Shown: positions 25,696 through 51,833, counted from the stretch's first letter. The stretch: DNA of 52,827 bases from an uncultured Methanobacteriaceae archaeon (GCA_964444115.1 CAYUFT010000002.1:1-52827); one strand, 5' to 3'. Translations and numbers: made by a program. The notes: generated from the letters alone by a model not told the origin.

Positions 25696-25745
25696 AAAAT
25701 CACCTAGTAATTAAATTAAATAATAAATTGAACGATTAATAATAA

Positions 25746-28812: not shown

Positions 28813-28839
28813 AGAATAGGAAATAATCCTGAAATGGGC

Positions 28840-34701: not shown

Positions 34702-36258
34702 ATGGCAGTGAATAACAGCGAGATAGAAAACAAATTATGGAAAGCAGCCGATCAACTGAGAGCAAACTCAAAATTAACAGCCTCTGAATACTCAATTCCA
34801 GTTTTAGGACTAATTTTTTTACGTTATGCTGATTCTAAATTTACTTTGGCAAAAGAAAAGATAGAAAGCGAATTTAAAAATAAGAATAGTCGGATGGGAA
34901 TCAAGAAAGAACACTATCAATCAAAAGGTGTTCTATATCTCCCTGAAGAATCACGTTTTTCAAATCTTCTAGAACTGCCTGAAGACCAAAATATAGGAAG
35001 GGCAGTAAATGATGCCATGAAGGCCATTGAAGCTGAAAATGATGAATTAAAAGACGTATTACCCAAAACTTACAACCGATTAGAAAATGATGTATTGATT
35101 TCATTATTAAAAAACTTCTCTAACATATCAATTGATCTTGAAGGAGATGTTTTTGGGAAAATTTACGAATATTTCTTAGGTAAATTCGCAATGGCTGAAG
35201 GCCAACGGGGAGGAGAATTTTTTACTCCTACATCTTTAGTTAAATTGATAGTAGCGATAATCAAACCATTCCATGGCCGTATTTATGATCCTGCATGTGG
35301 TTCTGGAGGTATGTTTGTCCAGAGTGCTCATTTTGTAGAAGAGCATAAAAAAAATCCTACCAAAGAAATAGCAATTTATGGGCAGGAAAAAACTGCAGCC
35401 ACTATAAGATTATGTAAGATGAATCTTGCCGTGCATGGTTTATCCGGAGATATAAGACAAGGAAACACGTATTATGAAGATATACACAACTCTTTTGGTA
35501 AATTCGACTTTGTAATGGCCAATCCACCATTTAATGTGAGTGGGGTCGATAAAGAAAAGGTTAAAGACGATAAAAGATTTTCTTATGGTATTCCTCGTGC
35601 TGACAATGGAAACTATCTCTGGATTGAAGCTTTTGCCAATGCACTTAATCCAAAAGGGCGTGCCGGATTTGTCATGGCCAATTCTGCTGGTGACGCTGGA
35701 CAGTCTGAACTTGAAATTCGTAAAAAGTTAATCGAAGAAGGAATTGTAGATGTAATGGTTTCAGTAGGGCCTAATTTCTTTTATACTGTAACTTTACCTT
35801 GCAGCCTATGGTTTTTAGATAAAAACAAAAAAGGAACTCCTACTGAAAATAAAGTTCTTTTCATAGATGCTCGTGAAACTTATAGGCAAATTGACCGTGC
35901 ACATCGCGATTTTAAACCAGAACAAATTGAATTTTTAGCAAATATTGCTAGACTCTATCGTGGAGAAGAAATCGAGAATTTACATAATAGTAAATCGTTA
36001 GTTAATGAAACTTTTCCCGAAGGAGAATATAAAAATGTTTTAGGTCTTTGTAAATTAGTAAATTTTGATGAAATCATTGAAAATGGATATTCACTGAATC
36101 CTGGCCGTTATGTTGGTGTTGCTGAAATGGAAGAAGATGAATTTGATTTTAATGAGCGTTTGCATGAAATAAATAATGAGTTTCAACATTTGAATAAAAA
36201 AGCCCATGAATTAGAGAAAACAATTACAGAAAATTTATCTTCTTTATTGGAGAAATAG
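34702..36258 (+). CDS. hsdM: Type I restriction-modification system, methyltransferase subunit
   Basis: HsdM N-terminal helix bundle (LWKAADQLR), FFTP, motif [13 protein letters not shown], motif [11 protein letters not shown]. Confidence 0.95.
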
Positions 36259-36259
36259 C

Positions 36260-37561
36260 ATGCTTAAATTTCATAAATTAGATAATGTGACAAATTTCCT
36301 CGGTAGGGGTGTTCAGCCAGCCTATGATGAAAATGGAATTATTGTTTTTAATCAAAGGTGCATTAGGAATAATATTGTAAGTTTAAAGGAATCTCGAATT
36401 ACTAATCCTGAAAAAAGAAAAATTTCTAAAGAAAAATTTCTTCAAAAATATGATGTTTTAGTTAATTCAACGGGTGTAGGCACTCTAGGACGTGTTGGGC
36501 AGATTAAAGATATAAATTACGCCGCTACTGTGGATTCTCATGTAACCATTGTGAGACCGAATTTAAGTTGTTTTAATGGATTATTTTTTGGATATGCAAT
36601 GGTGTATTCCCAACCAAAAATAGAAGCTATGGGAGAAGGTACTACTGGTCAGACAGAACTTTCTAGAAAACGTTTAGGTTCTCAAATTAAAGTTCCTATC
36701 CCTAATTTAGAAATTCAAAATAAAATTGCTGAAATTCTTACAGCATATGATAATCTTATTGAAAACAATAATAATAGGATTCAAATATTATCTAAATTAA
36801 CAGAAATTATTTTTAGAGAATGGTTTATAAAATACAGATTCCCAAGTAAAGAAAAATTCGAAATGATTGAATCAAAAGTAGGATTAATACCTCAAAATTG
36901 GGAAATTAAGCCTTTGAGAGAGCTAATTTCTTATTACATTGGTGGTGGATGGGGAAAAGAATATCATGAATCTGATTTTCCTGATGAAGCATATGTAATT
37001 AGAGGTACTGACATACCCCAAGTTTCAGTTGGAAATTTAAAATCGTGTCCACATCGATTCCATAAAGCTTCAAATTTAAAATCAAGAAAAATTAAATCAA
37101 CGGATATTGTATTTGAGGTTTCTGGAGGAAGCAAAGGTCAACCCGTAGGTAGAAATATTCTCATTACAGAAGAAGTTGTTAATAGGCTGAGTAATATTAT
37201 GTGTGCGAGTTTTTGTAAATTGATTAGGCCTAATAATGAATTAATTAGCCCATTCTTTTTAGATCAATTCTTTAAATATATTTATAAATCTGGTGAAATT
37301 TTAACTTATCAAACACAATCAACGGGAATTTCAAATTTCAAATTTGAATATTTCTTAGATAAAGTTATGATCGCTGTTCCTCCTAAAGAGTTATCAATTG
37401 AATTTACAAATATTATATCTCCGATTTATGAATTGATAGCTAAATTAGGCCATAAAAACGAAATTTTACTTCAAAAAAGAGATTTAATCCTTCCCAAACT
37501 TATTTCAGGCCAAATAGATATCACAGATTTAGATATTATCACAGAGGAGATAGAATCATGA
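36260..37561 (+). CDS. hsdS: Type I restriction-modification system, specificity subunit (two TRDs)
   Basis: Two variable halves, each followed by a conserved helix (ILTAYDNLIENNNNRIQILSKLTEIIFREWF and LLQKRDLILPKLISGQIDI). 1-nt gap from hsdM and 4-nt overlap with hsdR. Confidence 0.9.
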   Translation: MLKFHKLDNVTNFLGRGVQPAYDENGIIVFNQRCIRNNIVSLKESRITNPEKRKISKEKFLQKYDVLVNSTGVGTLGRVGQIKDINYAATVDSHVTIVRPNLSCFNGLFFGYAMVYSQPKIEAMGEGTTGQTELSRKRLGSQIKVPIPNLEIQNKIAEILTAYDNLIENNNNRIQILSKLTEIIFREWFIKYRFPSKEKFEMIESKVGLIPQNWEIKPLRELISYYIGGGWGKEYHESDFPDEAYVIRGTDIPQVSVGNLKSCPHRFHKASNLKSRKIKSTDIVFEVSGGSKGQPVGRNILITEEVVNRLSNIMCASFCKLIRPNNELISPFFLDQFFKYIYKSGEILTYQTQSTGISNFKFEYFLDKVMIAVPPKELSIEFTNIISPIYELIAKLGHKNEILLQKRDLILPKLISGQIDITDLDIITEEIES

Positions 37562-40500
37562 CTCCAGGTTCATATTCTGAAGATGCATTGATTGAACAAC
37601 CAGCCATTGAATTGTTCAAGTCTTTAGGCTATGAACATAAAAATGGTTTTCATGAGACATTAGGTGAAAATGGAACTTTTAGTAGAGAAACTCAATCAGA
37701 AGTTGTTCTTAAAAAGCGATTAAAAGATTCTCTAATTCGTTTAAACCCTGGAATACCAGATCATATCATTGATCTTGCAATTGAAGACATCAGTAGAGAT
37801 AGGAGTATTCTAAATCCTACTGTGGCCAATCATGAAATTTATAAAATGATTCGAGATGGGATTAAAGTAAGTGTCAATTTTGATGAGGAATATGAAGAAA
37901 TTGAAACTCTAAAGATAATTGATTTTGATAACCCAAATAATAACGACTTTTTTTTGGCTTCACAGTTCTGGATCACTGGAGATATTGAGAAAAGAAGAGC
38001 AGATTTAGTAGGTTTTGTTAATGGCCTACCCCTTATTTTTATTGAACTAAAAGCAGCACATCGGAAAGTTAGTGATGCATTTACACATAATTTATCAGAT
38101 TATAAAGATACTATTCCCCAATTATTCTGGTATAACACTTTTATTATATTATCAAATGGTTCTCAAAGCAAAATTGGAACCATATCTGCTAAATTAGAAC
38201 ATTTTAGTGATTGGAAAAGAATTTCTAGTGAAGGAGAAAAAGGAATAATTTCTTTAGACACGATTATAAGAGGAACTTGTCAAAAAGAAAGATTTTTAGA
38301 TTTATTAGAAAACTTCACATTATTTAATGACGGTGGAACTCTGATTAAGATTCTAGGAAGAAACCACCAATATTTAGGAGTTAATAATGCCATTGAATCT
38401 TTTGAAAAGATTAAAGAAAACCAGGGAAAATTAGGGGTTTTCTGGCATACTCAGGGGAGCGGGAAAAGTTATTCCATGATTTTCTTTTCACAGAAAATTT
38501 TAAGGAAATTCCCTGGAAATTACACTTTTTTAATTGTTACTGATAGAAAAGAGTTAGATGATCAGATTTATAAAAATTTTGCCAATGCTGGTGCAGTAAT
38601 TGAGGATGAAGTACATGCAAAAAGCGGCGCCCATTTACAAGAGCTCTTAAGAGAAAACCATCGCAATATTTTCACACTTATCCATAAATTTCAAACAGAT
38701 GAAGGTGAAATCTATCCTGTTTTATCGGAACGTTCAGATATCATTGTTATTACTGACGAAGCACATCGTTCTCAGTACTCTACACTGGCCATGAACATGC
38801 GAACTGCACTTCCTAATGCTGCTTTTATTGCGTTTACCGGAACTCCTTTAATGGCGGGAGAAGAACTTACTAAAAATACCTTTGGGGATTATGTTAGCAT
38901 ATACAACTTCCGACAGTCTATTGAAGATCAGGCAACGGTTCCTTTATACTATGAGAACCGTATCCCAGAAGTTCAACTCAAAAATAAGGATCTTAACTCA
39001 GATATGGAGCGTATTATTGAAGATGCGCTGCTTGATGAGGACCAGCTGCAAAAACTTGAGCGAGAATTTGCCAGAGAATATCACTTAATAACTCGCAATG
39101 ATCGGCTCGAAAAAGTTGCAGAAGATATTGTCGATCATTTTATAGGCCGTGGCTATGATGGAAAAGCCATGGTAGTGTCCATTGATAAACCAACTGCAGT
39201 TAAAATGTACAATAAAGTTCAAGAATACTGGAAACATCATATTATTGAACTCCAAGATGAAATTAATCTTATTGATGATCCATCCCATAGAAAAGAGCTT
39301 GAAAATAAGCTTAATTTTATGATGGAAACTGATATGGCCGTTGTGGTAAGTGGTGGTCAAAATGAATTTGAAAAGTTCAAGCGCCTTAATTTAGACATAA
39401 AATCCCATCGTAAGAGAATGCAAAGTGAAGATTTAGCTTCCATGTTCAAAGATGCTGATAACCCTTTCAGAATTGTTTTTGTATGTGCTATGTGGATGAC
39501 TGGTTTTGATGTTCCTTCACTTTCAACCATTTACTTAGATAAACCAATGCGTAACCATACACTAATGCAGACTATCGCAAGAGCAAATAGGGTCTTTGAA
39601 GATAAGCCAAATGGTTTAATTGTTGATTACATTGGAGTATTTAGAGATTTGAAGAGAGCTTTGGCAATATATGGAGCTCCTGGAGAAGAATCAGAGGATA
39701 TTCCTGTAAAACCAAAATCAGAACTCATCGAAGAACTTAAAGAAGCATTAGATGAGATTGAAAGTTTTTGTAAAGAAAAAGAAATTAATACAATAGATAT
39801 TATATCTACAACAGGTTTTGAGAAAGTTAAACTCCTTGAAGATGCTGTAGATTCAATTTTAGTTAATGAAGATTCTAAAAAGAAATATTTTACCTTAGAA
39901 AGTGCTGTAAAAAACTTATTTAAAGCAATATTGCCTGATCGTGATGCTGGAATATTTAACGAAAAGGTTACATTATTTAGAATAATTTCCGAAAAAATTA
40001 GATCTTTAGATCCTGATGTTGATATATCCGAAGTAATGGACGACGTTGAGAAATTACTCGATGATTCGATTGAAAGCGAAGGATATATGATAAAAGCTAA
40101 AGGAAAAGGGATAGATTTAAGTAAAATCGACTTTGATGCTTTAAGAAAACACTTCGAAACAGGTAGAAAACATACAAAAGCAGAAAAGCTCAAAAATGAT
40201 GTTCAAAGAAAGGTTAAAGAGATGGTAACTCTTAATCAAACCAGAATAGATTTCATGGAAAAATTTGAAAAGATAATAAACGATTATAATTCTGGATCTG
40301 CCAACGTAGAAGCATTTTTTGAAGAATTGATGGAATTTGCAAAGGAGTTGAATAAAGAAGATATAAGGGGCATTTCTGAAAATCTTACTGAAGAAGAATT
40401 AGTAATCTTTGATTTGATTTACAAAGATGATCTAAAAGAAAAAGAAAAGAAAAAAGTTAAAAATACAGCTAAGTATCTTCTTAAAGTTCTAAAAAACGAA

Positions 40501-40701
40501 AAATTAGTTATTGACTGGAGAAAAAAACAGCAGTCAAGAGCTGATGTGTTATTTACTATTGAAAGCATTTTAGATGAATGTTTACCAAGAAGTTACTCTC
40601 CAGAAATATACGAAGAAAAATGTAATTTTGTTTATCAGCATATTTATGATTCATATTATGGGGTTGGGGAAAGCCTATATTCCAAAATGGGAATTGCTTG
40701 A
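37558..40701 (+). CDS. hsdR: Type I restriction enzyme, endonuclease/translocase subunit
   Basis: N-terminal nuclease region (RADLVGFVNGLPLIFIELKA), WHTQGSGKS, VITDEAHRSQ, FTGTP, QTIARANR. Confidence 0.95.
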   Translation: MTPGSYSEDALIEQPAIELFKSLGYEHKNGFHETLGENGTFSRETQSEVVLKKRLKDSLIRLNPGIPDHIIDLAIEDISRDRSILNPTVANHEIYKMIRDGIKVSVNFDEEYEEIETLKIIDFDNPNNNDFFLASQFWITGDIEKRRADLVGFVNGLPLIFIELKAAHRKVSDAFTHNLSDYKDTIPQLFWYNTFIILSNGSQSKIGTISAKLEHFSDWKRISSEGEKGIISLDTIIRGTCQKERFLDLLENFTLFNDGGTLIKILGRNHQYLGVNNAIESFEKIKENQGKLGVFWHTQGSGKSYSMIFFSQKILRKFPGNYTFLIVTDRKELDDQIYKNFANAGAVIEDEVHAKSGAHLQELLRENHRNIFTLIHKFQTDEGEIYPVLSERSDIIVITDEAHRSQYSTLAMNMRTALPNAAFIAFTGTPLMAGEELTKNTFGDYVSIYNFRQSIEDQATVPLYYENRIPEVQLKNKDLNSDMERIIEDALLDEDQLQKLEREFAREYHLITRNDRLEKVAEDIVDHFIGRGYDGKAMVVSIDKPTAVKMYNKVQEYWKHHIIELQDEINLIDDPSHRKELENKLNFMMETDMAVVVSGGQNEFEKFKRLNLDIKSHRKRMQSEDLASMFKDADNPFRIVFVCAMWMTGFDVPSLSTIYLDKPMRNHTLMQTIARANRVFEDKPNGLIVDYIGVFRDLKRALAIYGAPGEESEDIPVKPKSELIEELKEALDEIESFCKEKEINTIDIISTTGFEKVKLLEDAVDSILVNEDSKKKYFTLESAVKNLFKAILPDRDAGIFNEKVTLFRIISEKIRSLDPDVDISEVMDDVEKLLDDSIESEGYMIKAKGKGIDLSKIDFDALRKHFETGRKHTKAEKLKNDVQRKVKEMVTLNQTRIDFMEKFEKIINDYNSGSANVEAFFEELMEFAKELNKEDIRGISENLTEEELVIFDLIYKDDLKEKEKKKVKNTAKYLLKVLKNEKLVIDWRKKQQSRADVLFTIESILDECLPRSYSPEIYEEKCNFVYQHIYDSYYGVGESLYSKMGIA

Positions 40702-40739
40702 AATTACTTAATTGGAAATAGAATTAATAAAGGTGCAAA

Positions 40740-42884
40740 ATGAAACTATTTGAAGAATCTGAATTAATTCAGTCATCAATATCTTATTTAAGGAATGAAT
40801 TAGGTTTCAGTTTAATTGATTATGAAGTTCCATTTAATATTGGAAAAACAAAAAATAGGGCAGATATTGTAGTTTATAAAAAGAAAAATAATGAACAAAA
40901 GCCCTATATTTTAGTTGAAGTTAATTCACAAGATAAAATCGGAAAATATGCATGGATTCAAGCTGAAAGCTATGCTAAAAGATTAAAAACTCCTTACTTT
41001 GCTGTTACAAATGGTAATGAATGGCAATGGTTTAAAACTGGGAAAATTGGTGAATCTGATGAAATTAATATTGATCAAATAAATCGTTCTGGAACCACTG
41101 TGGGTAAAATTACTATTAAAGATCAAAAACATTTTTTAAAAGTTTTTGATCATATGAAACAGATTGTATATGAATCTGAAAATTTAAGATCAGATAAAAC
41201 CCTATATGAACTAATAAAAATAATATTTGTTAAGTTGGAATATGATAAAGACATTAATAAAAAAAATTCTTTAATTGGTGAAGACAGAAGTTTAACAGAC
41301 GGAATTAATGATTTTTATCAAATAAAGCTAAAAAAATACCCTAAATTGATTGATTCGAAATTAAACGAAAATTTTTTTAGAATAAACCTTAGTGAAGAAA
41401 CAATTTCTAAATTAATTAGTATTTTAGATCAATTTAAATTTATTGATTCCGATGTTAATGAATGTTTTAATCTTAATCTGCCTACTTTGGGTTATAACTT
41501 CAAAAATGAATTAGGATATTTCTTTATACCTCTTGAATTAAGTAAATTCATTGTTAATTTTATTAATCCAAGTATTGATAATTCAATTTTAAATCCTGCC
41601 TGCAAAAACGGAGCTTTATTAATTGAAACAATTAAAAAAAATTGTGAAGAGTTAAAAAGCTCAGAAAAGCCTGAAAATATTAAAGCTAATATATCTAAAA
41701 AAATTCATGGAATAGAAGATAACCCTGAACTTTACTGGTTTACTTGCATGAATTTAATTCTACATGGATATAGTGCTGATGGAATATCCCTTACAGATAC
41801 CTTAAATTTAGAAGAAAATGATAAATACGATATAATTTTTGTTATGCCCCCATTTGGCCATATAAATCGTTTTAATAATTTTATATCTGATGAAAATTTA
41901 AGAATAAGATATACAGAAGAAGCTTTTTTATTAAAATCTATTAAATTGCTTAAAAATTCAGGCAAAATGAGTATAATATTACCTGATCGAGTTTTGACGA
42001 GTCCTAGTGCTAGACTTTTAAGAAAATATTTAAAAGAAAAAATGAATATTTTATCGATTATTTCTTTACCAAATAACATTTTTATTCATAAAAATATTAA
42101 AACATCCATTTTGTTTCTCGAAAAAAAAGAAGAAGGATTTTCTAAACAAAAAACCGTTTTTATGGTTGATTTCCAATCTAAACATCAATTAAAGGAAAAG
42201 GATTTTAATGAAGTTTTAGAAGATTACATTCTTTTTAAAAAGACAAATTTAAAAAAGGGACGAATAAGTGAGAGTTCTTTCGCAGTGAATGAAGATTTGA
42301 TTATTGAAAATGATGTTTTAAGTACTTCTTATTATAATCCCGAATATTTAGAAATTAAAAATCAATTAAAAAAATTAAAGAATCAAAAAAAATTAAAAGA
42401 TATTGGTGAAATATCCATAGGACAAAGATTTAAAGATAATTTTGAATCATCTGACAGCAGCATACCTCTTATAAAGATTAAAAATATAGTTGATGGAAAA
42501 ATTTCAAAAAAAGATCTAAAATTTATAGAGATAAATAATCCTCGGACGAAATTATGGTCACCTGATACGTTAATAATTTCTCGAATTGGACTAAAAAATA
42601 AAATTGCAATATTACCGCCTGATTTTCCAAAATATACTCTAGATAAAAATTTAATAGGTATAAAACTTGAAAAAAACGTTATACCTGAATATTTGGCTTT
42701 ATTTTTAAATTCGAAATATGGAACGGTGCAGTTAGAATCAATAAAAGTTTCTGGAATAATTCCATATCTTGGTTTATCACATTTAAAGGAGATTATTATA
42801 CCTCTAAACTCAATTAAAGCTCAGAAAAAAATTTTGGAATTAAAAGATGGAAATGAAAATGATTTTTTTATGGAGATTAAATAA
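40740..42884 (+). CDS. Fusion protein: HsdR_N-like PD-(D/E)xK-fold N-domain + HsdM-like domain with degenerate catalytic motifs + a single HsdS-type TRD
   Basis: N-terminus NRADIVVYKK...PYILVEVNSQDK...YFAVTNGNEWQWF. MTase fold FFIPLELSKFIV, IHGIEDNPELYWFTCMNLILHG, SIISLPNNIF...TSILFLEK. Motif I reads ILNPACKNGALL (41592-41612) and motif IV reads FVMPPFG (41844-41855), not DPACGSG and NPPF. The C-terminal 190 aa or so are TRD-like. Confidence 0.8.
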   Translation: MKLFEESELIQSSISYLRNELGFSLIDYEVPFNIGKTKNRADIVVYKKKNNEQKPYILVEVNSQDKIGKYAWIQAESYAKRLKTPYFAVTNGNEWQWFKTGKIGESDEINIDQINRSGTTVGKITIKDQKHFLKVFDHMKQIVYESENLRSDKTLYELIKIIFVKLEYDKDINKKNSLIGEDRSLTDGINDFYQIKLKKYPKLIDSKLNENFFRINLSEETISKLISILDQFKFIDSDVNECFNLNLPTLGYNFKNELGYFFIPLELSKFIVNFINPSIDNSILNPACKNGALLIETIKKNCEELKSSEKPENIKANISKKIHGIEDNPELYWFTCMNLILHGYSADGISLTDTLNLEENDKYDIIFVMPPFGHINRFNNFISDENLRIRYTEEAFLLKSIKLLKNSGKMSIILPDRVLTSPSARLLRKYLKEKMNILSIISLPNNIFIHKNIKTSILFLEKKEEGFSKQKTVFMVDFQSKHQLKEKDFNEVLEDYILFKKTNLKKGRISESSFAVNEDLIIENDVLSTSYYNPEYLEIKNQLKKLKNQKKLKDIGEISIGQRFKDNFESSDSSIPLIKIKNIVDGKISKKDLKFIEINNPRTKLWSPDTLIISRIGLKNKIAILPPDFPKYTLDKNLIGIKLEKNVIPEYLALFLNSKYGTVQLESIKVSGIIPYLGLSHLKEIIIPLNSIKAQKKILELKDGNENDFFMEIK

Positions 42885-43681
42885 TGAAATTTTCATCCTC
42901 CGATATTTTCTGTATTTGTAAAATTATTAATGATTATTTCCCGTTAGAAGTCATTATCGGTGAGTTAACTGAAATTACTAATGATCAGGATTTAGATACA
43001 TTTCCAGAAATTCAGGAAACTATTTATAATTCAACTCAATCATTAAACTCAGATGCTATTAATGAATTAAGCGAATATTTTCATAGTTATCATATTAACT
43101 TTTTTTTGTTTATTAAAAAATTTGTCTCTGAAGAATTTTCAGAAACTTATTTAGAATATTTCCAATCATCAGATTTCTTAAAAAAGTTAAATAAAATTTT
43201 AATTGCCTATGAAATACGTATTAAAAACTATAAAATCCAAAAAAGAGTTTTTTTATTGCAAAATAGCTCTTTAGAGGAAAATTTATTATTTGTAGATATA
43301 ATAACACCAGATCATGTTGTTGATTATTACAAAGAATCATTAATTTGTCTAAATAATGAAACATTTAGATCATCTATTCTTTTTTGTGTTTTTGCTTTTG
43401 AGGCCGGGCTAAAATGTATGTATTATACTGTAGAAAAAAAAATTCCAAACGAACCGCTTCGTAGATTAATAGATTGGGCCAATAATAATAATCTTTTAGA
43501 AAAATTAGATGAAGACTATGATGAAGGCTATGAGGAATTAATTAAATTAAAAGATTATAGGAATATTCTTGTACATTGTAGTCCAAAGGAACGCGAAGAT
43601 ATCTCTTCAGAAATTGCAGGAAACCGAGCAGTAGCTGATTTAAATTTAATTAACCAGTCTTTAAATTCAATATTTGATTAA
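42884..43681 (+). CDS. HEPN-domain protein (predicted RNase)
   Basis: C-terminal four-helix pattern with FAFEAGLKCMYY... and the R-x4-H motif KDYRNILVHCS (43559-43576). Its start shares 1 nt with the stop of the upstream gene (TAATG). Confidence 0.6.
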   Translation: MKFSSSDIFCICKIINDYFPLEVIIGELTEITNDQDLDTFPEIQETIYNSTQSLNSDAINELSEYFHSYHINFFLFIKKFVSEEFSETYLEYFQSSDFLKKLNKILIAYEIRIKNYKIQKRVFLLQNSSLEENLLFVDIITPDHVVDYYKESLICLNNETFRSSILFCVFAFEAGLKCMYYTVEKKIPNEPLRRLIDWANNNNLLEKLDEDYDEGYEELIKLKDYRNILVHCSPKEREDISSEIAGNRAVADLNLINQSLNSIFD

Positions 43682-43694
43682 TAGGGGGGCTTAG

Positions 43695-46600
43695 ATGAAA
43701 TGGACATTTATTATAAATAAAGATTTTTATTCCGAACTAAAATCCAAGAATGAAATAAAATGGAATAGTGCTAAAGAAGTGAAGAAAGGAGACATAATTT
43801 TAATATATACTGGATCTCCTTACAGCAATATTGGTTTCATTTTAAAAGCTATTTCAGACCCTTTTGAAGATTCAGAAATAAGAAAAGCCTGGGATAGACC
43901 AGCAATAATGGTTGAAAAATTACTCGAAATTCCAGAACCTATCGAACTATCTCAACTAAAAGAAAACCCCATATTAAGCAATTGGGGTGCCGTGAGAATG
44001 GGTTTTAGGGGTTCTCATTTCAAAATGTCACAAGAAGAGTGGAAAGAAATAATAAAACTTATTTTAGGGCAAAATCCTGAATTGGAAGTTGAAATTCTAA
44101 ATTTAGAAAACATATTATCAAATGGGACAATTAATCCAGAAACTATACATTATAATGATTTAAGTGCTGGTCGGGCCCATTTAGTTCGTGATTTATGCTA
44201 TTTAATAGAAAAAAATAGTAATTTAAGTGAAAAAAAGCTTTTTGATATCTTAAGGAGAAAAGTAGGAAATAATGATAATTATTGGAAAGCATATTTTTTA
44301 AGATCTAATAAAAATAACAGTCCTCAGTACAGTTTAAATTCAGCAAGAAGTTTAGGGCTGGTTGAAAAAAATTCACTACACCTAACTGAAACAGGAAAAG
44401 AATTAGCAGATTTATCTACATCCAATGAATTATTCACTCATTATTATGGGCTAGAAGTAAAAAAGTTCTTCTTTAAATTGGCTGCTTCTATCCATTCTAT
44501 AAAAACAGCTATGCAAATTTTAAAGGAAAAAAGAGAATTGCGTTTTTATTCTCCAACCTGTAAAGAAATTGATAAAGTGACTTGGGACTGGAAGATCGAA
44601 AATGGAAAAGTAATTTGTGAATCTGACAAATATAACAAATGTAAATTATGTGATAACGATTTTATGACTCATATGAAAGAATCATCACTACCCCTTGAAA
44701 CTATGCAAAAAACTAATGGGGAAGGATACGGATTTGTATTCTGGATGTGCAGTCGTATCACTCCAATGCATTTGAAAGGTTCAGATCCAGTTTATTCTGG
44801 AAATTATATTTATTGGGATGATGATGCTGAAAAAGAGCTTGGGCATCTAATTAAAATATTAGATGAAAATAAAAATTCATCCCCCAAAGTATGGAAAATA
44901 TCTCCAGGTAACTTTGAAAAAAGAAAAAAATTATGGCCAATCCTTGTTGAAAAAGGTTATATTGGAGTAGGATGGTTTGGTTGTGAATCTTTTATCAAGA
45001 AATCATTTTCTCAATTTAAATCACTAGATAGTTTAAAAGAAGAACTTCAAAAATGCTCCAAAAAGAAAGCAGTTATAAAAAATGCAGACATGATATGGAA
45101 TTTTGGAAAAGAAATTAAAATTGGAGATTATGTTGTAGCTAACAATGGCCTTAAAGGAATATGGGGCATAGGAATAATAAAAAGTGATTATATACCTCCA
45201 GATGAATCAATTAAGTTGAAGATTGATGAAGATAATGAATATTTCCATTTCAGAAAAGTTGAATGGTTAATAACCGCTCCTATTGAAATGAAAGAAGATT
45301 ATTTTTTTGTACAACAAACTATTAAAAAAATAGATTCCGAGAAATGGAAAAAAATTAAGTCATCTTATATTAAAATAAACCCTGAATATGAACGTATTTT
45401 CAGAGAAATGGAAAATAAGTCGAAAAGTGGGGACATTGAACAAGAAATTAAATTAATTAAAAAGTTATATGCTGAATTCAATAAAGATTATTTTTCAAAA
45501 CCAATAGGCATAGAACATGCTGAGGGCTATGAAAAAGAAAGACAAGAAGTTCTTAAATATTACAACAAAATTAAAGATAATCCTGAAATTTTTAATGATA
45601 CCAATAACCCAATAATTAACTACCTCTTGCCAATAAAACGTTTTTCAGTTGCTCCTACCGGATTCAATGATATTAAAGCTGTTCGAAGAAGAGAAGATAA
45701 TCTGCCTGAATTTTCAGAGTCTGTTTATAATCTAATTATTGATTTAATCAACAAAAATGATTCTAATGAACAGAAAGAGGTAATTAATACATTTAAAACA
45801 GGAGATGGGAAGGGAATACAGTCTGCAGTTTTATCATCAGTTCTTTATTTCTTAAACCCAACTTATCTATATATTAACACAAAGACTGTAAAAACTTTTA
45901 GAATATTATCTGAACTTTTAGGTCATGACAAATATATCAATGGGAATTTAATCGACTATATTGATAATTTAAAAAGATTGAAAGAATTGAAAAATGAAAT
46001 TTCTGCAATTATACCCGAATTTAAAGATTTTGAGGTTTTTGATGCCTTCTGTAACTGGATGTGTGATGCAAATCTAGGTGCTTATGCAGTTAATGGTATA
46101 AAACTCGAAATTTTAAAAAAGAATTATGATTTAAACATCAAAAATTCATTTGAAATCCTTTTAGAAAATTACAACAAAGCTAAAGTAGATAAAGTTTCAC
46201 CTGCTGAAAAAATCTTAGTAAGAGACCTATTATCAACTACAATCCCTGAAAAGTTATCTGAAATAAATCAGGGCCAATATAAAATATTCAGTAGCGCTTG
46301 GGATAAATGGCATTATTGTCCCTATGTGGCCTTGATGAATGAAAAAATCACATCTAAACATATAACTGGATATTATGTTAATTACATGTTTAGAGAAGAT
46401 ATGAGTGGCATTTATCTGGCCTTAAGGCAAGGTGTGCCAGAATTTGATAAAAGAAAGCTGGCTAAAAATTCAGAAGAATATAGAAGTAAAATAAGATCTC
46501 AAAAAGAAGTTACTGAATTTTCAGAAGAAATTGACCTAAAATCCTCTCAGGGCCAATTTGGAAAGTTTTATGAATCTGCAAATATCTACTCCAAATTTTA

Positions 46601-47831
46601 TCCAAAAGAGAACATCCCTTCTGAGGAAGAATTAATCTCTGATCTTGAAAAAATGCTAAAACTTTATGATGATTTAAGTGAATTAACTTCTATTCAATTT
46701 AATTCATTCAATGACTTTTTAAAAGATAAGAACTTCTTATACACTCCAGAAATGTTGGAGAATTACTTACTTTCATTGAAGGTCAAACCATTTGTCATAT
46801 TAACGGGTAACTCCGGTACTGGTAAGACAAAAATAGCACAGCTTTTTGCAGAATACTTAGAACAAAAAGATGTAGGTGAATCAGTAATAATACCCGTGGG
46901 TGCTAACTGGACTGAAAATAGACATCTAATGGGATTCTTTAATGTGATAACCAGTGACTACCAGTCAACCCCAGCCCTAGATCTAATAATAAAGGCCTCA
47001 AATGACAATAGTAAACCTTATTTTTTAATCCTGGATGAAATGAATCTTTCTCATGTGGAACGTTATTTCTCTGACTTTTTATCGGCCATGGAAAGTGGTA
47101 AAGAAATATCCCTATATTCCAAGGATAATGCTAAAGTTATTAAGAACAAACTAATCCCTGAAAAACTGGAAATTCCAGATAACTTATTTGTTATTGGAAC
47201 CGTTAATGTGGATGAAACAACCTTTAGGTTATTTCCTAAGGTTCTGGATAGGGCCAATACTATTGAATTTAAAACATATCCTGCTAGGGACTACATAATG
47301 TGTGAAATTGAACATGAATCTCCCAAAGGAGATATTAATTATTTAGAGAATCCCATATCTGATTTTAAAATGAGAAAATGTAAAATAAACAATTTAAAAG
47401 ATAAATTAACTCACGTGAAAGTCAATGACAATAATAACCTCTGGGAAGAGTTGGCCTTAGAGATTCATTCATTCCAAGATGTTTTATCCACAGCAGGCTT
47501 TGATTTTGGATTCCGAGTTATTGATGAGATAATGAGATTCATGTATACTGCCTGGCTTTATGAAGATTCACCCGATGAATGGAATAACTGGGAGCGTTAT
47601 TTTGATGCTCAAATTATGCAAAAAATGCTTCCTAAAATTCATGGCTCTCAAAGAGAGCTTGAAACTATTTTAGAAGAACTTTTCAAAAAATGCTACCGAA
47701 GTAATTTTGAAGAATTGTGGTATTCAATTAATTTAGAAGGAAATGACATTATTTATGCATCAAGTGCTAAAAAGCTTCAAAGAATGGGTAAAACTCTTCA
47801 GGAAAAACGATTTGTATCATTTACGGATTAG
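43695..47831 (+). CDS. mcrB: McrB-like AAA+ GTPase with an N-terminal EVE/PUA-like domain, a second PUA-like domain and a DUF3578 (MrcB_N)-like domain
   Basis: EVE-like aa 1-125 (KGDIILIYTG...IGFILKAISDP...LSQLKENPIL...FKMSQEEWKEI). Second PUA-like domain about 44885-45300 (KVWKISPGN...GYIGVGW...IKIGDYVVA...GIGIIKSDY...FRKVEWL). DUF3578-like about 46250-46435 (WHYCPYVALMNEKITSKHITGYYVNYMFREDMSGIYLALRQG). AAA+ region: VILTGNSGTGKTK (46806-46829), FLILDEMNLSHVERYFSDFLSAME, FVIGTVNVDETT, LDRANTIEF. Confidence 0.85.
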   Translation: MKWTFIINKDFYSELKSKNEIKWNSAKEVKKGDIILIYTGSPYSNIGFILKAISDPFEDSEIRKAWDRPAIMVEKLLEIPEPIELSQLKENPILSNWGAVRMGFRGSHFKMSQEEWKEIIKLILGQNPELEVEILNLENILSNGTINPETIHYNDLSAGRAHLVRDLCYLIEKNSNLSEKKLFDILRRKVGNNDNYWKAYFLRSNKNNSPQYSLNSARSLGLVEKNSLHLTETGKELADLSTSNELFTHYYGLEVKKFFFKLAASIHSIKTAMQILKEKRELRFYSPTCKEIDKVTWDWKIENGKVICESDKYNKCKLCDNDFMTHMKESSLPLETMQKTNGEGYGFVFWMCSRITPMHLKGSDPVYSGNYIYWDDDAEKELGHLIKILDENKNSSPKVWKISPGNFEKRKKLWPILVEKGYIGVGWFGCESFIKKSFSQFKSLDSLKEELQKCSKKKAVIKNADMIWNFGKEIKIGDYVVANNGLKGIWGIGIIKSDYIPPDESIKLKIDEDNEYFHFRKVEWLITAPIEMKEDYFFVQQTIKKIDSEKWKKIKSSYIKINPEYERIFREMENKSKSGDIEQEIKLIKKLYAEFNKDYFSKPIGIEHAEGYEKERQEVLKYYNKIKDNPEIFNDTNNPIINYLLPIKRFSVAPTGFNDIKAVRRREDNLPEFSESVYNLIIDLINKNDSNEQKEVINTFKTGDGKGIQSAVLSSVLYFLNPTYLYINTKTVKTFRILSELLGHDKYINGNLIDYIDNLKRLKELKNEISAIIPEFKDFEVFDAFCNWMCDANLGAYAVNGIKLEILKKNYDLNIKNSFEILLENYNKAKVDKVSPAEKILVRDLLSTTIPEKLSEINQGQYKIFSSAWDKWHYCPYVALMNEKITSKHITGYYVNYMFREDMSGIYLALRQGVPEFDKRKLAKNSEEYRSKIRSQKEVTEFSEEIDLKSSQGQFGKFYESANIYSKFYPKENIPSEEELISDLEKMLKLYDDLSELTSIQFNSFNDFLKDKNFLYTPEMLENYLLSLKVKPFVILTGNSGTGKTKIAQLFAEYLEQKDVGESVIIPVGANWTENRHLMGFFNVITSDYQSTPALDLIIKASNDNSKPYFLILDEMNLSHVERYFSDFLSAMESGKEISLYSKDNAKVIKNKLIPEKLEIPDNLFVIGTVNVDETTFRLFPKVLDRANTIEFKTYPARDYIMCEIEHESPKGDINYLENPISDFKMRKCKINNLKDKLTHVKVNDNNNLWEELALEIHSFQDVLSTAGFDFGFRVIDEIMRFMYTAWLYEDSPDEWNNWERYFDAQIMQKMLPKIHGSQRELETILEELFKKCYRSNFEELWYSINLEGNDIIYASSAKKLQRMGKTLQEKRFVSFTD

Positions 47832-47836
47832 GTATA

Positions 47837-49624
47837 ATGATTACCCAAGAAATTAAAATCAGTTTCCAAGATGCATATGGGAATAATCTAGGAACACTGA
47901 TTATTACTTACTCTAACAAACACATTGAAGAGTATGAAACCTTCTCGAAAATGATTAATGGCAATTATATTGAATTTAAAAATGTTCCTCGAGTTTTTAA
48001 AACAAATCAGAATACAGCCATAGCATTTAATGAAAATAAATGTGTGCATGAGAGCATATTGCTACTGGAAGAAACGGAATATCAGCTTTTTTTCACTCCT
48101 GCGAATATTAATATTGAAAATATTTCATTTCCCACACTGGAAAAAAAAGACAAAACCCCGGTTTTCAAGAAATTAAATATTAATAGGGCTGATATTTACA
48201 GCGGAATTCTTAATTTCAAAGCATATGCTGGTAAATCATTTTTTGATGTTCAAATTGATAAAAACGTCTCTTTAAAATGTCCCTTCGAAGTTCGATCTAA
48301 AAAAATAGATTATATTAATCACTACTCCTCCATGATTAGTGATCTTTCACAAGCCGATTCTTCAATTATTCTTTATGATAAATCTCCGGTTCACAGTTTA
48401 CTAAACTTTGAAGAAAGGGTAAAAAAGAGTTTTTATGAAGATTTCATGTTTTTAGAATATATTTTCCGCCCTGAGAATCTTCCAACTTCTTATGGGCATA
48501 TAAGAAGAGACCCTCATAGAATACTAATTAAATATACTGAAACAGTCCCTATATCATTAGCATCATCTGTAGGGCCTTCCAGTTTAATTGATATAGTGGC
48601 TTGTCCTGAAAACCTGACTAAAACAGATGAAGTTCCTTTTAACTGGCCAGCTGAAATGAAGAACCTGGTTCCTCAGAAAGTCGCTAAAGAGAGTTATATT
48701 GATAATCTGGATACTCCTGAAAACAGATTTATTAAGTATTTTTTAACTTTATTATTTGAATTAATCAGTGAAATGAATTTATATATTGAAAAGGAAGGTA
48801 TTAATGGATATCCTGCTGAGAAGATAATAGAATATCAAGAAATTATTCAGGAATATGTTATGGATGAATGGGTAGATGAAGTAGGTAAACTGGATCATTT
48901 CCCATCAAATTCTCAAGTTCTACAAAAAAAAGAAGGATATCGAGAAATTTTTGACTATTTCCTAATATTCGAGTTCAGCTTTAATTTCCAGTTCGAAGAA
49001 GTAAAAGAAGAAATTAAAGGATATCAAAAAAAGCTCAGTGAACTTTATGAATACTGGTGCTATCTTAAACTTATTAAAATTATGAGTAAATTATCCAGAG
49101 TTAAAGTTAATTATTCCTCTATTTTCGATTTAAATAGAAAAAAATGGTCTATTAAGGTTAAAAGAGGGGAAGAATCATCTCAAAAATTTATAATCCCCTT
49201 AAATGATATGGATTTGGAAGTAGAATTAGAGTTTAACAGAGAATTTAAAAAATATGAATTAAATTACAATCCATATCCCTTAAAATATAGGCCAGATTAT
49301 ACAATTATAGTGAAAACAAGTTATTATAAAGTATTTTTACATTTCGATGCTAAATATAAACTAAACAAAGAAACTTTTAAAAATGAGGATATTTTTAAAA
49401 TGCATACATATAAAGATGCCATTAAATATTCATCAGGGGCTTATGTATTATATCCCGGTCTGAAAGAAGGAATATATTATGAAAACGAAAAAACTGTGGC
49501 ATCTGTAGGAGCATTCCCTCTTAAACCCGGAAAATTAGATATTGAAGATGAAAATAAGATAGAAACATTTTTAATTAAATTTTTAAACTTAATTTCAGAA
49601 GAATCAGAGGACAATATTAAATAA
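47837..49624 (+). CDS. mcrC: McrC-like protein (DUF2357-type N-region + PD-(D/E)xK nuclease, DUF524-like)
   Basis: 5-nt gap after the McrB-like gene. C-terminal nuclease motif YRPDYTIIVK...FLHFDAKYK (DAK at 49346-49354) ...HTYKDAI. Confidence 0.8.
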   Translation: MITQEIKISFQDAYGNNLGTLIITYSNKHIEEYETFSKMINGNYIEFKNVPRVFKTNQNTAIAFNENKCVHESILLLEETEYQLFFTPANINIENISFPTLEKKDKTPVFKKLNINRADIYSGILNFKAYAGKSFFDVQIDKNVSLKCPFEVRSKKIDYINHYSSMISDLSQADSSIILYDKSPVHSLLNFEERVKKSFYEDFMFLEYIFRPENLPTSYGHIRRDPHRILIKYTETVPISLASSVGPSSLIDIVACPENLTKTDEVPFNWPAEMKNLVPQKVAKESYIDNLDTPENRFIKYFLTLLFELISEMNLYIEKEGINGYPAEKIIEYQEIIQEYVMDEWVDEVGKLDHFPSNSQVLQKKEGYREIFDYFLIFEFSFNFQFEEVKEEIKGYQKKLSELYEYWCYLKLIKIMSKLSRVKVNYSSIFDLNRKKWSIKVKRGEESSQKFIIPLNDMDLEVELEFNREFKKYELNYNPYPLKYRPDYTIIVKTSYYKVFLHFDAKYKLNKETFKNEDIFKMHTYKDAIKYSSGAYVLYPGLKEGIYYENEKTVASVGAFPLKPGKLDIEDENKIETFLIKFLNLISEESEDNIK

Positions 49625-49661
49625 CTGAAAGATTCATGATTGATTAAAAAAATTAAATGAA

Positions 49662-50912
49662 CTATTCAAATATTTCTAGTTCATCATCAAAATTGTCCCA
49701 TTCTAGATTGTCAAATAAGTCAATTATTTTTTCACTGGAGTCGAATTTATCTGGATTTTGTTGAACTATATCCAGCGCACTGACTACTCCCCGAACATAA
49801 TCTCGGGGCTGTACTGAACCGGTAAGAATCGATTTTTCTTTGTAGAAATCAATGATACTCACAATTAAACTATCATCAAATTTATCTGTGATTTCATTCC
49901 CATATACTGAAGAATACAATACTAGGATTTTTCTAGTTAATGTGTCCAGATCTTCATTAGTAAATCCTTCCAACTTCATAATAGGCTTTCTAAAATCTTT
50001 ATATTCAGATTCTATAGCATCTTTAATTCTCTGATGCAAGGCTGGATAGGAGGGAACCCCTTTTTCTGGATTTTCAAAAAATTCATCAGTACCGGCCATT
50101 ACAAACAGGGTCTTTTCAAAATTACCTAAATTGCACTCATCATACAAATATCTAACATAATCCAGAGCCGTGGATCGGATATTCTTATTGGCCAGCATTA
50201 TAATAAATTCAATCTCATCAATCAATATAACAAGACCATTGTAACCTATAGATGAAATAAAAGCAGACAAGGCCTTTAAAAAGTCAAATACATTTTCCTT
50301 AGAAACTCCGCCCTTAACTCCAAATTGTCTTTTCACGGTGAAAGGAATATTATCATCACATCTTAGCCAGGCCTGGGCATAGTTAGCAATTTCATCATCA
50401 CCATTTACCGAAGCCTCATAGTAACTTTCAATAGCTGTAACAAAGGAATTAGAATAATTTCGGGCACTCTGCAAATCAATGTGGATATTATCCATCACAA
50501 TATGATTTTGCTGTAAAGGGTCTTCCGTTTCATCCATAGCCGCGATTTTAAGTTCATTTATCCATCTTTCAATGATATGCTGCAGTGAAACTCCAGTTTT
50601 ACATTTTAAAGTGCTTACAATTTTTCTATAAACTTCTTCAAATTTATTAAAGGGAACATCACGAGTAATAGTTATCTTAGAGACTACAAAATTATTTTCC
50701 AGTGCATTTTCCTCAATCATTTTCAGTAAGAATGATTTTCCAGTCCCAAATTTTCCTTCCACAAATTTTGCGGAACCTTTTCCTTGTTTAATGTTTTCCA
50801 GTATATTTTGAAATTCTAAAATTTCTGAATCCCGTCCCACCGAAATTTCAAAAGTACCCTCTGGAGGAACATTTCCATCCTTTAGTGCCCTTATTATATC
50901 TTCATTTTCCAT
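49662..50912 (-). CDS. P-loop ATPase (DUF2791/BrxD-like by pattern)
   Basis: Walker A VEGKFGTGKSFLLK, Walker B GLVILIDEIEF. 9-nt gap after the upstream co-oriented gene. The family name is from memory of the motif layout and has not been searched. Confidence 0.65.
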   Translation of the reverse strand: MENEDIIRALKDGNVPPEGTFEISVGRDSEILEFQNILENIKQGKGSAKFVEGKFGTGKSFLLKMIEENALENNFVVSKITITRDVPFNKFEEVYRKIVSTLKCKTGVSLQHIIERWINELKIAAMDETEDPLQQNHIVMDNIHIDLQSARNYSNSFVTAIESYYEASVNGDDEIANYAQAWLRCDDNIPFTVKRQFGVKGGVSKENVFDFLKALSAFISSIGYNGLVILIDEIEFIIMLANKNIRSTALDYVRYLYDECNLGNFEKTLFVMAGTDEFFENPEKGVPSYPALHQRIKDAIESEYKDFRKPIMKLEGFTNEDLDTLTRKILVLYSSVYGNEITDKFDDSLIVSIIDFYKEKSILTGSVQPRDYVRGVVSALDIVQQNPDKFDSSEKIIDLFDNLEWDNFDDELEIFE

Positions 50913-50921
50913 TTTAACCCC

Positions 50922-51485: not shown

Positions 51486-51833
51486 AAAAGCTATTTTTTT
51501 AGATTTCCCAACATTAATAGGACAAACAAAAAGAATTCTATCTTTAGTATTAACCTTGTTAATGGCTCTGGCCTGGGGGCTACGGGAACTGATTATCTTT
51601 TTTTTATGGAAAGAGTCAATATAATCCGGTTCAAGCCGATGAATCCAGTACTTTGGAGAATTATGAAATTTTTTATCTTTAATATAATCACCCTCAAAAT
51701 GTATAATTATTAATTAAATTTTACATATATAATCATTTCTTTTTAATTCTCATCGATATATTTATTTAAACATATGTCATGTAAATATTAAATATAAACA
51801 ATACTTGTTTTATTATTGATATCAGGTAACAAA

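Follow-up and report, generated by a model that had tools for sequence, protein, structure and literature searches.

We analysed a 52,827-nt stretch of DNA from an uncultured Methanobacteriaceae archaeon (GCA_964444115.1, CAYUFT010000002.1:1-52827; hereafter the window), in which seven co-directional genes at positions 34702–49624 encode a Type I restriction-modification (R-M) system, a 714-aa methyltransferase (MTase)-like protein, a 265-aa HEPN protein and an McrB-like/McrC-like pair. Comparison with related loci (given L numbers below) indicates that this array is a mosaic assembled from separable modules by recombination. One of the modules contains a two-gene unit, conserved as a pair and under purifying selection, in which a methylase-like protein with degenerate catalytic motifs precedes a putative HEPN RNase. 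A superoperon of separable modules that includes such a dead-methylase/HEPN unit is, as an explanation of the whole array, the one to which we give a little better than even credence. The locus and its relatives form a natural series, running from an apparently active nuclease-MTase/S/HEPN triad to a fused, motif-dead MTase-like protein accompanied by HEPN and McrBC genes, and in at least one clade a 'methyltransferase' may have been converted to a sensor or scaffold.

The methylase-like protein and its HEPN partner

The MTase-like gene (40740–42884, + strand) encodes 714 residues comprising a PD-ExK nuclease-like HSDR_N_2 domain (aa 7–101), a gamma-class N6-MTase fold (aa about 254–526; Pfam N6_Mtase, E = 1.6e-36, with the M protein of StySJI as top PDB sequence match, E = 3e-26) and one HsdS-type target recognition domain (TRD; aa about 550–700). 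Motif I of this protein reads NPACKNG and motif IV reads MPPF, which BLAST sets directly opposite the NPPF of HsdM from the same array. Motif IV reads IPPF, FPPL, FPPF or FPHF in six McrBC-linked orthologues; all seven McrBC-linked copies have thus lost the motif IV Asn, and have K, N or S in place of the first motif I Gly. Intact D-P-x-C-G-S-G-G-F and NPPF motifs were found in the window HsdM, in four MTases encoded by the three-gene loci described below (triads) and in five distant relatives. The gamma-class N6-adenine MTase signature, (N/D)PP(Y/F/W) together with GxG, is absent from the 714-aa protein. The motif IV Asn is the residue that contacts the target amino group, and in seven of seven copies it has given way to variable hydrophobic residues. 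From established MTase enzymology (mutagenesis of motif IV in EcoKI and M.TaqI; METTL14, a pseudo-enzyme with the motif EPPL), loss of catalysis is predicted, and we infer that the 714-aa protein no longer methylates.

The nuclease motif D42...E60-x-K62 is intact in the orthologues (E-V-K or E-T-K), and its lysine is replaced in the window copy (D42...E60-V-N62), where codon 62 is AAT (40923–40925). This K62N substitution is limited to the window strain, in which the same protein was found on three contigs, arguing that the change is not a sequencing error; in this strain the 714-aa protein is probably unable to cut. The ratio of nonsynonymous to synonymous substitution rates (dN/dS) was 0.24–0.40 for the 714-aa gene, compared to 0.05–0.13 for hsdM and hsdR, and 0.16–0.30 for the HEPN gene. 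These values indicate that both genes of the unit are under purifying selection and are not decaying pseudogenes.

The HEPN gene (42884–43681, + strand) has a start codon that overlaps the stop codon of the MTase-like gene (TAATG), and it encodes 265 residues with a novel N-terminal helical domain (aa 1–135) followed by a C-terminal HEPN domain (aa about 140–265) carrying the motif residues E151, E173 and R226-N-I-L-V-H231. The family is small, with 24 representatives in a profile search of 1.84 billion representative proteins. R226-N-x-L-V-H231, an instance of the HEPN Rx4-6H motif with the usual polar residue after the Arg, is invariant in its 12 core members; across the family E173 is invariant and E151 nearly so, and N227 and H231 are kept in at least 90% of 26 members. 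Pfam, NCBIfam, PADLOC and PDB sequences gave no match when searched directly with the 265-aa protein. The family profile retrieved the remote members P0183, P0191 and P0192 (E = 1.5e-6 to 4e-4), all of which exceed the Pfam DUF4145 threshold and two of which (P0183 and P0191) also exceed that of HEPN (PF05168), and hhalign aligned the C-terminal domain to these remote members with a probability of 99.6%. On these sequence grounds we accept the C-terminal HEPN domain, in agreement with a preliminary description of the window that had listed this protein as a HEPN-type candidate.

Wherever both genes are visible, the MTase-like and HEPN genes are adjacent (about 12 loci in archaea and bacteria), and in most cases the stop codon of the first overlaps the start codon of the second. 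The order [MTase-like]-[HEPN]-[McrB]-[McrC] was found in six Methanobacterium-type lineages (the window, L007, L004/L005, L006, L008/L009 and L018). This module lies behind an RloC-like gene and hsdMSR in two of the six (the window and L007), and in the other four (M. petrolearium, an M. formicicum metagenome-assembled genome (MAG), L008 and Methanobacterium sp. MZD130B) it lies behind genes for a PLD-SNF2 helicase, an Eco57I/MmeI-like MTase, DUF365, GmrSD and DUF1802. The triads of L019–L022 consist of overlapping genes for a PD-ExK-MTase (557–585 aa), an S protein (about 478 aa) and a HEPN protein (about 272 aa), with intact catalytic motifs in the MTases. No McrB or McrC homologue was present among the readable downstream open reading frames (ORFs) of triads L019 (a Clostridia MAG), L020 and L022, the L021 contig ending just after the HEPN gene, and no Type I operon was seen among the immediate neighbours of the bacterial triads. 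At L010, a 966-aa relative with two TRDs is followed by a HEPN gene, the pair lying directly behind an unrelated Type I operon of R-S-M order. Loss of the catalytic motifs coincides with M-S fusion and with McrBC linkage. The 265-aa family adjoins Type I genes only in the window, L007 and L010, and its constant link is to its own MTase-like/S genes. Considered together, the archaeal modules, the bacterial triads and L010 indicate that the constant unit is MTase-like/S plus HEPN.

Several observations concern individual relatives. The HEPN gene of L010 (12901–13686) is apparently truncated or frameshifted at its 5' end, with 171 aa in frame and a 36-aa ORF covering part of the gap. A distant HSDR_N_2-MTase homologue in Aliarcobacter cryaerophilus (L012, 10001–18633) leads a different five-gene set, its partners being an S subunit, an SMC-like ATPase, a HATPase_c protein and a NOV_C protein, and NPPF was seen in its cluster-mate P0027 from Aliarcobacter butzleri. 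Membership of the methylation-associated defence systems (MADS) was examined using the NCBIfam equivalog cut-offs for MAD2, MAD3, MAD5 and MAD8 and was rejected, as the scores (MADS2, 99.6 bits with a cut-off of 720; MADS5, 58.8 with a cut-off of 400; MADS3, 18.6 with a cut-off of 420) reflect shared domain homology only.

Mosaic structure and layout of the array

Compared to L007, the closest relative of the array, nucleotide identity of the window changes in steps along the array. It is 96–100% across hsdMSR, with a dip to 89–91% within hsdM, then 92–95% across the 714-aa gene (step at about 40700) and 67–75% across the HEPN gene and the mcrB segment for the EVE domain (step at about 42880); past about 44000 the sequences are unrelated. 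The fall from 98% to 93% to 70% at gene junctions suggests that these junctions bound segments with different histories. The synonymous divergence (dS) of the HEPN gene between the two loci is 1.04, against 0.155 for the upstream 714-aa gene. Relative to neighbouring genes, which are 93–100% identical, the low identity of the interval 42880–44000 indicates a local hot spot of exchange or rapid divergence.

A further junction lies inside the McrB-like gene (43695–47831, + strand). The N-terminal ~800 residues (43695–46088, + strand) form a sensor region derived from an NxxD-type 'McrB-1' and contain an EVE domain (aa 18–122; 43746–44060, + strand; Pfam EVE, E = 5.5e-10) and a DUF8426/PDC-S02 domain (aa 398–528; 44886–45278, + strand; PADLOC PDC-S02, Pfam DUF8426). 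The C-terminal ~565 residues (46137–47831, + strand) amount to a complete NxD-type 'McrB-2', with MrcB_N/DUF3578 at aa 823–995 (Pfam MrcB_N, E = 8.5e-32), AAA_5, a PADLOC PDC-M26A match (E = 2e-52), an AAA+ region that aligns to E. coli McrB (E = 2.8e-6) and a full set of GTPase motifs, namely Walker A GNSGTGKT (aa 1038), Walker B DEMN (aa 1114) and the signature GTVNVDE (NxD). Residues 1–798 are 45% identical to aa 1–773 of the 1109-aa McrB-1 of L006, which has EVE and DUF8426 domains and an NxxD GTPase (ATMNIYDKD), and residues 815–1376 align to McrB-2 of the same locus (MrcB_N 35%, P-loop segment 66% and GTPase 58% identity) and, at 51–55% identity, to McrB-2 of L026 and L027. The McrC-like nuclease (47837–49624, + strand; Pfam DUF2357, E = 9e-46; PDDEXK_7, E = 5e-27) is 40–42% identical to McrC-2 of L006, L026 and L027 (42% for L006). 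The assignment of the last two genes, separated by 5 nt, as an McrB-like/McrC-like pair was thus borne out by the MrcB_N domain, the AAA+ motifs, DUF2357 and the PD-(D/E)xK nuclease.

In L006 (10819–20783) and L018 (10811–20198), two McrBC pairs lie in tandem, the first consisting of an EVE-DUF8426-NxxD McrB and an McrC without a Pfam family match, and the second of an MrcB_N-type McrB (NxD read in L006 only) and a DUF2357 McrC. This is likely the precursor arrangement of the window's chimeric mcrB. L026 and L027 have only the second type of McrBC, beside the same BrxC/D flank as the window. The split similarity to McrB-1 and McrB-2 indicates that the window mcrB arose as an in-frame graft of the module's sensor region onto a resident McrB, a graft that cost one GTPase domain and one McrC. 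For the remaining parts of the sensor region (aa 123–397 and 529–800, about 550 residues), among which is a Cys-rich stretch at around aa 300–330, there was no Pfam family match, and a PDB sequence search with aa 123–800 was also negative.

The module is interrupted in M. petrolearium. In the complete genome (L004) the MTase-like gene is split into 476 and 224 aa, and in the other assembly (L005) it is intact at 716 aa. The McrB-1 ORF ends at 741 aa in both assemblies; in L004 it is followed by a DDE_3 transposase gene and then by the AAA+ part as a separate 374-aa ORF, and the contig of the second assembly ends before the site of this insertion. These disruptions may represent ongoing inactivation or differences between assemblies.

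The first three genes of the array were confirmed as Type I M, S and R genes by domain matches and, by these criteria, form a complete and conventional system. HsdM (34702–36258, + strand) matches Pfam HsdM_N (E = 1.5e-24) and N6_Mtase (E = 1.3e-89) and PADLOC MTase_I (E = 1e-223), and has the canonical motifs DPACGSGG and NPPF. HsdS (36260–37561, + strand) is full length, matching Pfam Methylase_S and, over residues 10–422, the PADLOC Specificity_I models. HsdR (37558–40701, + strand) exceeds the NCBIfam hsdR cut-off (522 bits; cut-off 285) and comprises nuclease, superfamily 2 (SF2) motor, domain 3 and C-terminal domains (Pfam HSDR_N, SWI2_SNF2, T1R_D3-like and T1RH-like_C).

A six-frame ORF list reproduced exactly the co-directional arrangement given in the preliminary description, with spacings from hsdM to mcrC of +1, −4, +38, −1, +13 and +5 nt. 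All array ORFs are intact in the window, their predicted N-termini agree with those of orthologues, a Shine-Dalgarno-like purine run (GGAG, GAGG, AGGTG or GGGGG) precedes each of the seven starts, and two independent metagenome contigs (L001 and L002) encode identical proteins in this order. The window contains a second co-directional array, of six genes (20189–24540, + strand; gaps of 12, 19, −14, 15 and 30 nt), which indicates that tight spacing is usual in this genome and that the packing of the seven genes is ordinary operon structure and not beyond chance.

A scan for sigma-70 promoters and intrinsic terminators used a bacterial model and was discarded, as it gave no more matches than shuffled sequences. 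Since the host is archaeal and such a scan is not applicable, a simple check for TATA boxes and oligo-T runs was used instead, in which a sequence that matched TTTATATA fully or with a single mismatch counted as a TATA-like box. The 38-nt hsdR/714-aa junction (40702–40739) contains a Shine-Dalgarno sequence (AAAGGTG) as its sole signal and no oligo-T run, and no TATA-like box was present up to 160 nt upstream of the 714-aa, HEPN, mcrB or mcrC genes. A TATA-like sequence, TTTATAAA, lies 63 nt upstream of hsdM. Co-transcription across 40701/40740 is therefore plausible on these signals, and the pattern would fit a single transcript from the hsdM promoter.

Proposed explanation, rival readings and known systems

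In the superoperon explanation that we favour, hsdMSR would restrict unmethylated DNA, and the two-gene unit of the 714-aa and 265-aa proteins would descend from a three-gene nuclease-MTase/S/HEPN system, of which the Methanobacterium lineage fused the M gene to half of the S gene and lost the catalytic Asn and first motif I Gly. The 714-aa protein would act as a sequence-reading or base-flipping DNA sensor and scaffold, forming a physical complex with the 265-aa protein and, by analogy with PrrC-EcoprrI, keeping this translationally coupled HEPN RNase latent; the RNase would be set free when the sensor engages foreign DNA or comes under attack from an anti-restriction factor. McrBC would serve as a GTP-driven Type IV nuclease against modified DNA, recognised via three reader domains.

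Some points weigh against this explanation, support for which is computational throughout. Loss of methylation is deduced from two motifs, and the acidic residue of motif II (Glu) and the overall MTase fold are kept, such that the 714-aa protein may retain S-adenosylmethionine binding or residual activity. K62N is unique to the strain, and this copy may therefore differ in function from its orthologues. The 265-aa protein itself matches no Pfam HEPN model; where a four-helix up-down bundle would be expected, its AlphaFold2 (AF2) model predicts helices but is poor, with a predicted local distance difference test score (pLDDT) below 50 for aa 225–265 and only the N-terminal helical domain confident, and Foldseek found nothing significant (top match AbiA, E = 1.2). 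The promoter and terminator calls are consensus matches in AT-rich DNA, with a background of 1.5 TATA-like matches per kb. Finally, the archaeal module always lies directly downstream of another restriction system, and this constancy could mean that the module truly needs the upstream enzyme to function, in which case a central role for Type I would gain support.

Such a role is part of the model that follows from the preliminary description, where the Type I operon is called fused to the McrBC-like module: the enzyme would serve as a hub, with the RloC-like protein encoded upstream and the 265-aa HEPN protein kept latent by HsdMSR until viral disabling of the enzyme released the RNases and McrBC. 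The unbroken co-directional packing and the hsdR/714-aa junction free of promoter- or terminator-like signals agree with this proposal, as does the PrrC precedent, and RloC has been proposed to act with R-M systems in trans (PMC2610378, PMC3710099). The RloC-like/hsdMSR/714-aa/HEPN part of the gene order also recurs in L007, and the 966-aa/HEPN pair of L010 follows a Type I operon, so homologues of the downstream genes do neighbour Type I systems elsewhere. Type I is equally not required, however: the module lies behind a different, non-Type I restriction set in four lineages, the bacterial triads lack Type I genes among their immediate neighbours, and close relatives carry RloC-like and McrBC genes without Type I. 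The identity steps at both junctions point to separate histories instead of a fusion, and no similarity could be detected between the 714-aa protein's TRD and the window HsdS, so that a shared specificity of the two was rejected. The RloC-like gene and its small ORF lie between DNA ligase and photolyase genes in Petrotoga and occur in other non-R-M contexts, and RloC itself is R-M linked in only 8 of 73 cases (PMC2610378). With an MTase-like partner always beside the 265-aa protein and an RloC-like gene that occurs without R-M, a Type I hub guarded by both HEPN proteins was not supported, and we now regard it as distinctly unlikely.

Similarly improbable, in our judgement, is a complete lack of functional coupling, under which hot-spot recombination would have packed unrelated genes and the degenerate methylase and chimeric McrB would be decaying remnants. 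The island is highly mosaic (about 31 kb here, compared to about 10 kb in relatives), with breakpoints at gene junctions and inside mcrB, and signs of decay could be read in K62N, in the M. petrolearium mcrB interrupted by an insertion sequence, in the MTase-like gene split in one of its two assemblies, and in the L010 HEPN gene, which looks frameshifted. Remnants would not be expected to show an MTase-like/HEPN adjacency repeated across about 12 archaeal and bacterial loci, usually with overlapping codons, purifying selection on both genes, or window ORFs that are intact, with a chimeric mcrB that keeps Walker A, Walker B and NxD. The least probable of the readings, and one we doubt strongly, is that the 714-aa protein is an active single-chain Type IIG/IIB-like R-M enzyme that marks host DNA by methylation, and that the McrBC-like pair cuts unmarked DNA in the manner of LlaJI, which would make the last four genes a classical restriction system with protective modification. 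Nuclease-MTase-TRD is the architecture of Type IIG/IIB enzymes, the triad relatives have intact catalytic motifs, the MTase fold and motif II Glu are kept, and McrBC is widely associated with MTases (Bell et al. 2024, PMC11090510); but the motif IV Asn/Asp position varies among Met, Ile and Phe, none of the seven copies keeps the first motif I Gly, the nuclease Lys is lost in the window copy, and the EVE and MrcB_N domains of McrB read modified, not unmodified, bases (PMC11090510). Unlikely as well, if somewhat less so than these three, is that the dead nuclease-MTase-TRD protein is a dedicated sensor or decoy that licenses the HEPN RNase and recruits the multi-reader McrBC. As a sensor, it would flip out and read a base, perhaps one already methylated, at a specific sequence; as a decoy, its R-M-like DNA-binding surface would bait viral anti-restriction DNA mimics. 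If true, this would account, in at least one clade, for the frequent position of Type IV McrBC beside 'methyltransferases', the methylase in question not being a methylase, and would represent a guard-type trigger for an archaeal abortive-infection module.

LlaJI combines McrB-/McrC-like restriction subunits with cognate, active 5-methylcytosine methyltransferases that protect the host. The window likewise encodes an McrBC-like pair beside a methyltransferase-family gene; it differs in that the MTase-like protein lacks the catalytic residue and McrB carries readers of modified bases. In Type IIB enzymes of the BcgI type, the A subunit contains nuclease and MTase and the B subunit is HsdS-like, and AloI/CjeI-type enzymes are single-chain. 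Triads L019–L022 have this A plus B layout, with an N-terminal PD-ExK domain fused to a gamma-class N6A-MTase, and the 966-aa protein of L010 has the single-chain, two-TRD layout. The 714-aa protein departs from both in having one TRD, degenerate motifs I and IV, and K62N. A HEPN gene follows the MTase-like/S unit in every locus with both readable, an arrangement that to our knowledge has not been described for BcgI; by architecture, the triad thus resembles a BcgI-type Type IIB enzyme plus an RNase. As for PrrC-EcoprrI, in which a Type I R-M enzyme keeps an anticodon nuclease latent, the putative HEPN RNase gene is invariably tied to methyltransferase-plus-specificity genes for DNA recognition. 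Unlike PrrC, the 265-aa protein has a novel N-terminal domain and no ABC ATPase domain, and its constant partner is the degenerate nuclease-MTase-TRD protein, not HsdMSR; obligate linkage of the RNase gene to Type I, the PrrC-type pattern, was found for neither the RloC-like nor the 265-aa family.

In E. coli, symE is a small toxin-type gene located between hsd and mcrBC. The window array resembles this immigration control region of strain K-12, and the branch in which Type I and McrBC share an operon (PMC11090510), in that hsd and mcrBC are adjacent, co-directional and possibly on one transcript, with a small toxin-type gene between them that in the window is the HEPN gene. In contrast, the window has an archaeal host, an NxD GTPase where E. 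coli McrB has NxxD, a chimeric McrB (EVE, DUF8426 and MrcB_N), and an MTase-like gene interposed together with the HEPN gene. CoCoNuTs are marked by long coiled-coil fusions on CnuB/CnuC, a CnuH helicase and further accessory genes. With these and other NxD-type McrBC systems the window array shares the NxD signature, extra restriction systems in a superoperon and HEPN RNases nearby. It differs in that no CnuH helicase gene lies downstream, McrC is a plain DUF2357 plus PD-(D/E)xK protein and McrB a plain MrcB_N-AAA_5 protein in this respect, and Pfam annotated no coiled-coil fusion on either, no dedicated coiled-coil prediction having been made.

These comparisons place the array among published ideas. 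Type I R-M and McrBC of the E. coli-type branch are often found in the same operon (Bell et al. 2024, PMC11090510). In the same work, McrBC of all GTPase branches was found 'surprisingly' often with predicted methyltransferases, a matter left for future work; NxD-branch McrBC was found in superoperons with other restriction systems, leading to a proposal of echeloned defence; and CoCoNuTs were nearly absent from archaea (PMC11090510). At least 16 HEPN clades are linked to R-M, with PrrC-like release of the RNase on R-M failure proposed, and operons that combine DUF4145-type HEPN genes with R-M and McrB/C genes are on record (Anantharaman et al. 2013, PMC3710099). The layered defence suggested in the preliminary description is thus a general hypothesis already published (PMC3710099, PMC11090510); it stands as such, without Type I as a required hub, and the array extends this published layered anti-virus defence and is not a new kind of defence. 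We did not find in the cited McrBC and HEPN literature (PMC11090510, PMC3710099) a motif-dead MTase-like sensor or its strict pairing with the 265-aa HEPN family, nor the series from active triad to dead fusion or a grafted McrB. The locus adds a HEPN family that is very small and had not been annotated before, an RloC-like family whose conserved partner is a micro-ORF, and an example of McrB specificity evolving through in-frame sensor grafting in methanogens, whose antiviral systems are poorly studied.

The RloC-like gene and the surrounding defence island

Upstream of the array, a gene at 32232–34604 (+ strand) encodes a 790-aa protein with a Rad50/SMC-type ABC ATPase (Pfam SMC_N, AAA_23 and AAA_15; top PADLOC match LmuB), a coiled-coil insert, a C-terminal helical domain and a 4-Cys ribbon. 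RloC is defined by an ABC ATPase, a CX2C zinc hook on a coiled-coil insert, the motif Arg-X3-Glu-X36-52-(Ser)His and a length of 658–897 aa (PMC2610378). In agreement with this definition, the 790-aa protein is of a size within the stated range, and its Rad50-like ATPase is interrupted by a coiled coil that bears a CX2C hook (CPIC, aa 293–296); its C-terminus carries the residues of an R-X3-E...(S)H triad, at a spacing outside the RloC range. Among 26 relatives (36–89% identical), C293 and P294 are invariant and C296 nearly so, and in R659-X3-E663...S729-H730 the residues R659, E663 and H730 are invariant and S729 nearly so. Like RloC, the family is seldom R-M linked; for RloC, linkage was reported in 8 of 73 cases and an interaction with R-M systems in trans was put forward (Davidov and Kaufmann 2008, PMC2610378).

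The differences are a Glu-to-His spacing of 66 residues (X66), compared to 36–52 in RloC, followed by the extra 4-Cys ribbon; a conserved overlapping upstream ORF of ~60 aa; and a family whose members come mostly from archaea or anaerobe metagenomes. Pfam AAA_13, the PrrC/RloC family, did not match the 790-aa protein at E ≤ 0.1, and matched 5 of the 26 relatives (best E = 4.5e-9). The C-terminus was modelled by AF2 with a pLDDT of 87, and its highest-probability Foldseek matches were the small HEPN proteins 1o3u, 2hsb, 2q00 and 1ufb, every one with E > 0.1 (for 1o3u, probability 0.85 and a template modelling (TM) score of 0.55, with E above 0.1); hhalign of this region against HEPN alignments gave nothing significant. 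The ATPase, the CPxC coiled coil and the size, together with a possible catalytic triad in the invariant R-X3-E...S-H, support the earlier naming of this gene, and 'RloC-like' is, for a candidate member that has most of the defining features, a fair description.

A 63-aa acidic ORF (32051–32242, + strand), with a TATA-like box 81 nt upstream, extends 11 nt into the RloC-like gene. An acidic ORF of 58–63 aa overlaps the start of the RloC-like ATPase (~797 aa) in the window, L013–L017, L026 and L027 (L013, 7838–8017; L016, 7841–8017; L026, 19801–19989, − strand; L027, 20452–20637, − strand), with 24–52% identity across archaea and Petrotoga and no family match. Conservation of the pair points to a two-gene system that is as yet undescribed. 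In L013–L017, L026 and L027 no R-M genes accompany the RloC-like gene, and in Petrotoga the gene and its small ORF are placed among housekeeping genes (the ligase and photolyase genes mentioned above); together with its 63-aa partner the RloC-like gene appears to be a fourth, autonomous unit upstream of the array.

Genes flanking the array fall into 90%-identity clusters whose named members are Methanobacteriaceae or Methanobacteriales MAGs, and the named homologues of its unusual genes are from Methanobacterium. No plasmid or phage homologue of the HEPN gene was found, and no tRNA genes, Rfam families or meaningful repeats were found flanking the array. The right flank of the variable island (49645–52827) contains a BrxC/D-family P-loop gene (Pfam BrxC_BrxD) and a 187-aa gene, both on the − strand, and begins 21 nt past the McrC stop; its nucleotide identity to the close relatives L026 and L027 is 92–95%, starting exactly at 49645. 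A left-flank match to the same relatives lies at 18127–18287, and together these matches delimit a variable region of ~18.3–49.6 kb, or about 31 kb, in the window; the corresponding region of L026 is about 10 kb. At this site L026 and L027 carry RloC-like and McrBC genes, without Type I and without the 714-aa and HEPN genes.

The array lies inside a defence island that also encodes, upstream, a NERD protein, a DEAD/MZB/TPR helicase and an SF2-HNH protein. The six-gene array at 20189–24540 encodes a zinc-ribbon/PepSY protein, a NERD-domain protein and several others that were without a family match or were not scanned, and may be another defence module. Three large genes on the opposite strand (24556–31911, − strand) encode a 379-aa protein with a weak Mu Gam/TOTE-like match, a 934-aa DEAD helicase with an MrfA Zn-binding (MZB) domain and TPR repeats, and a 1023-aa SF2 helicase fused to HNH.

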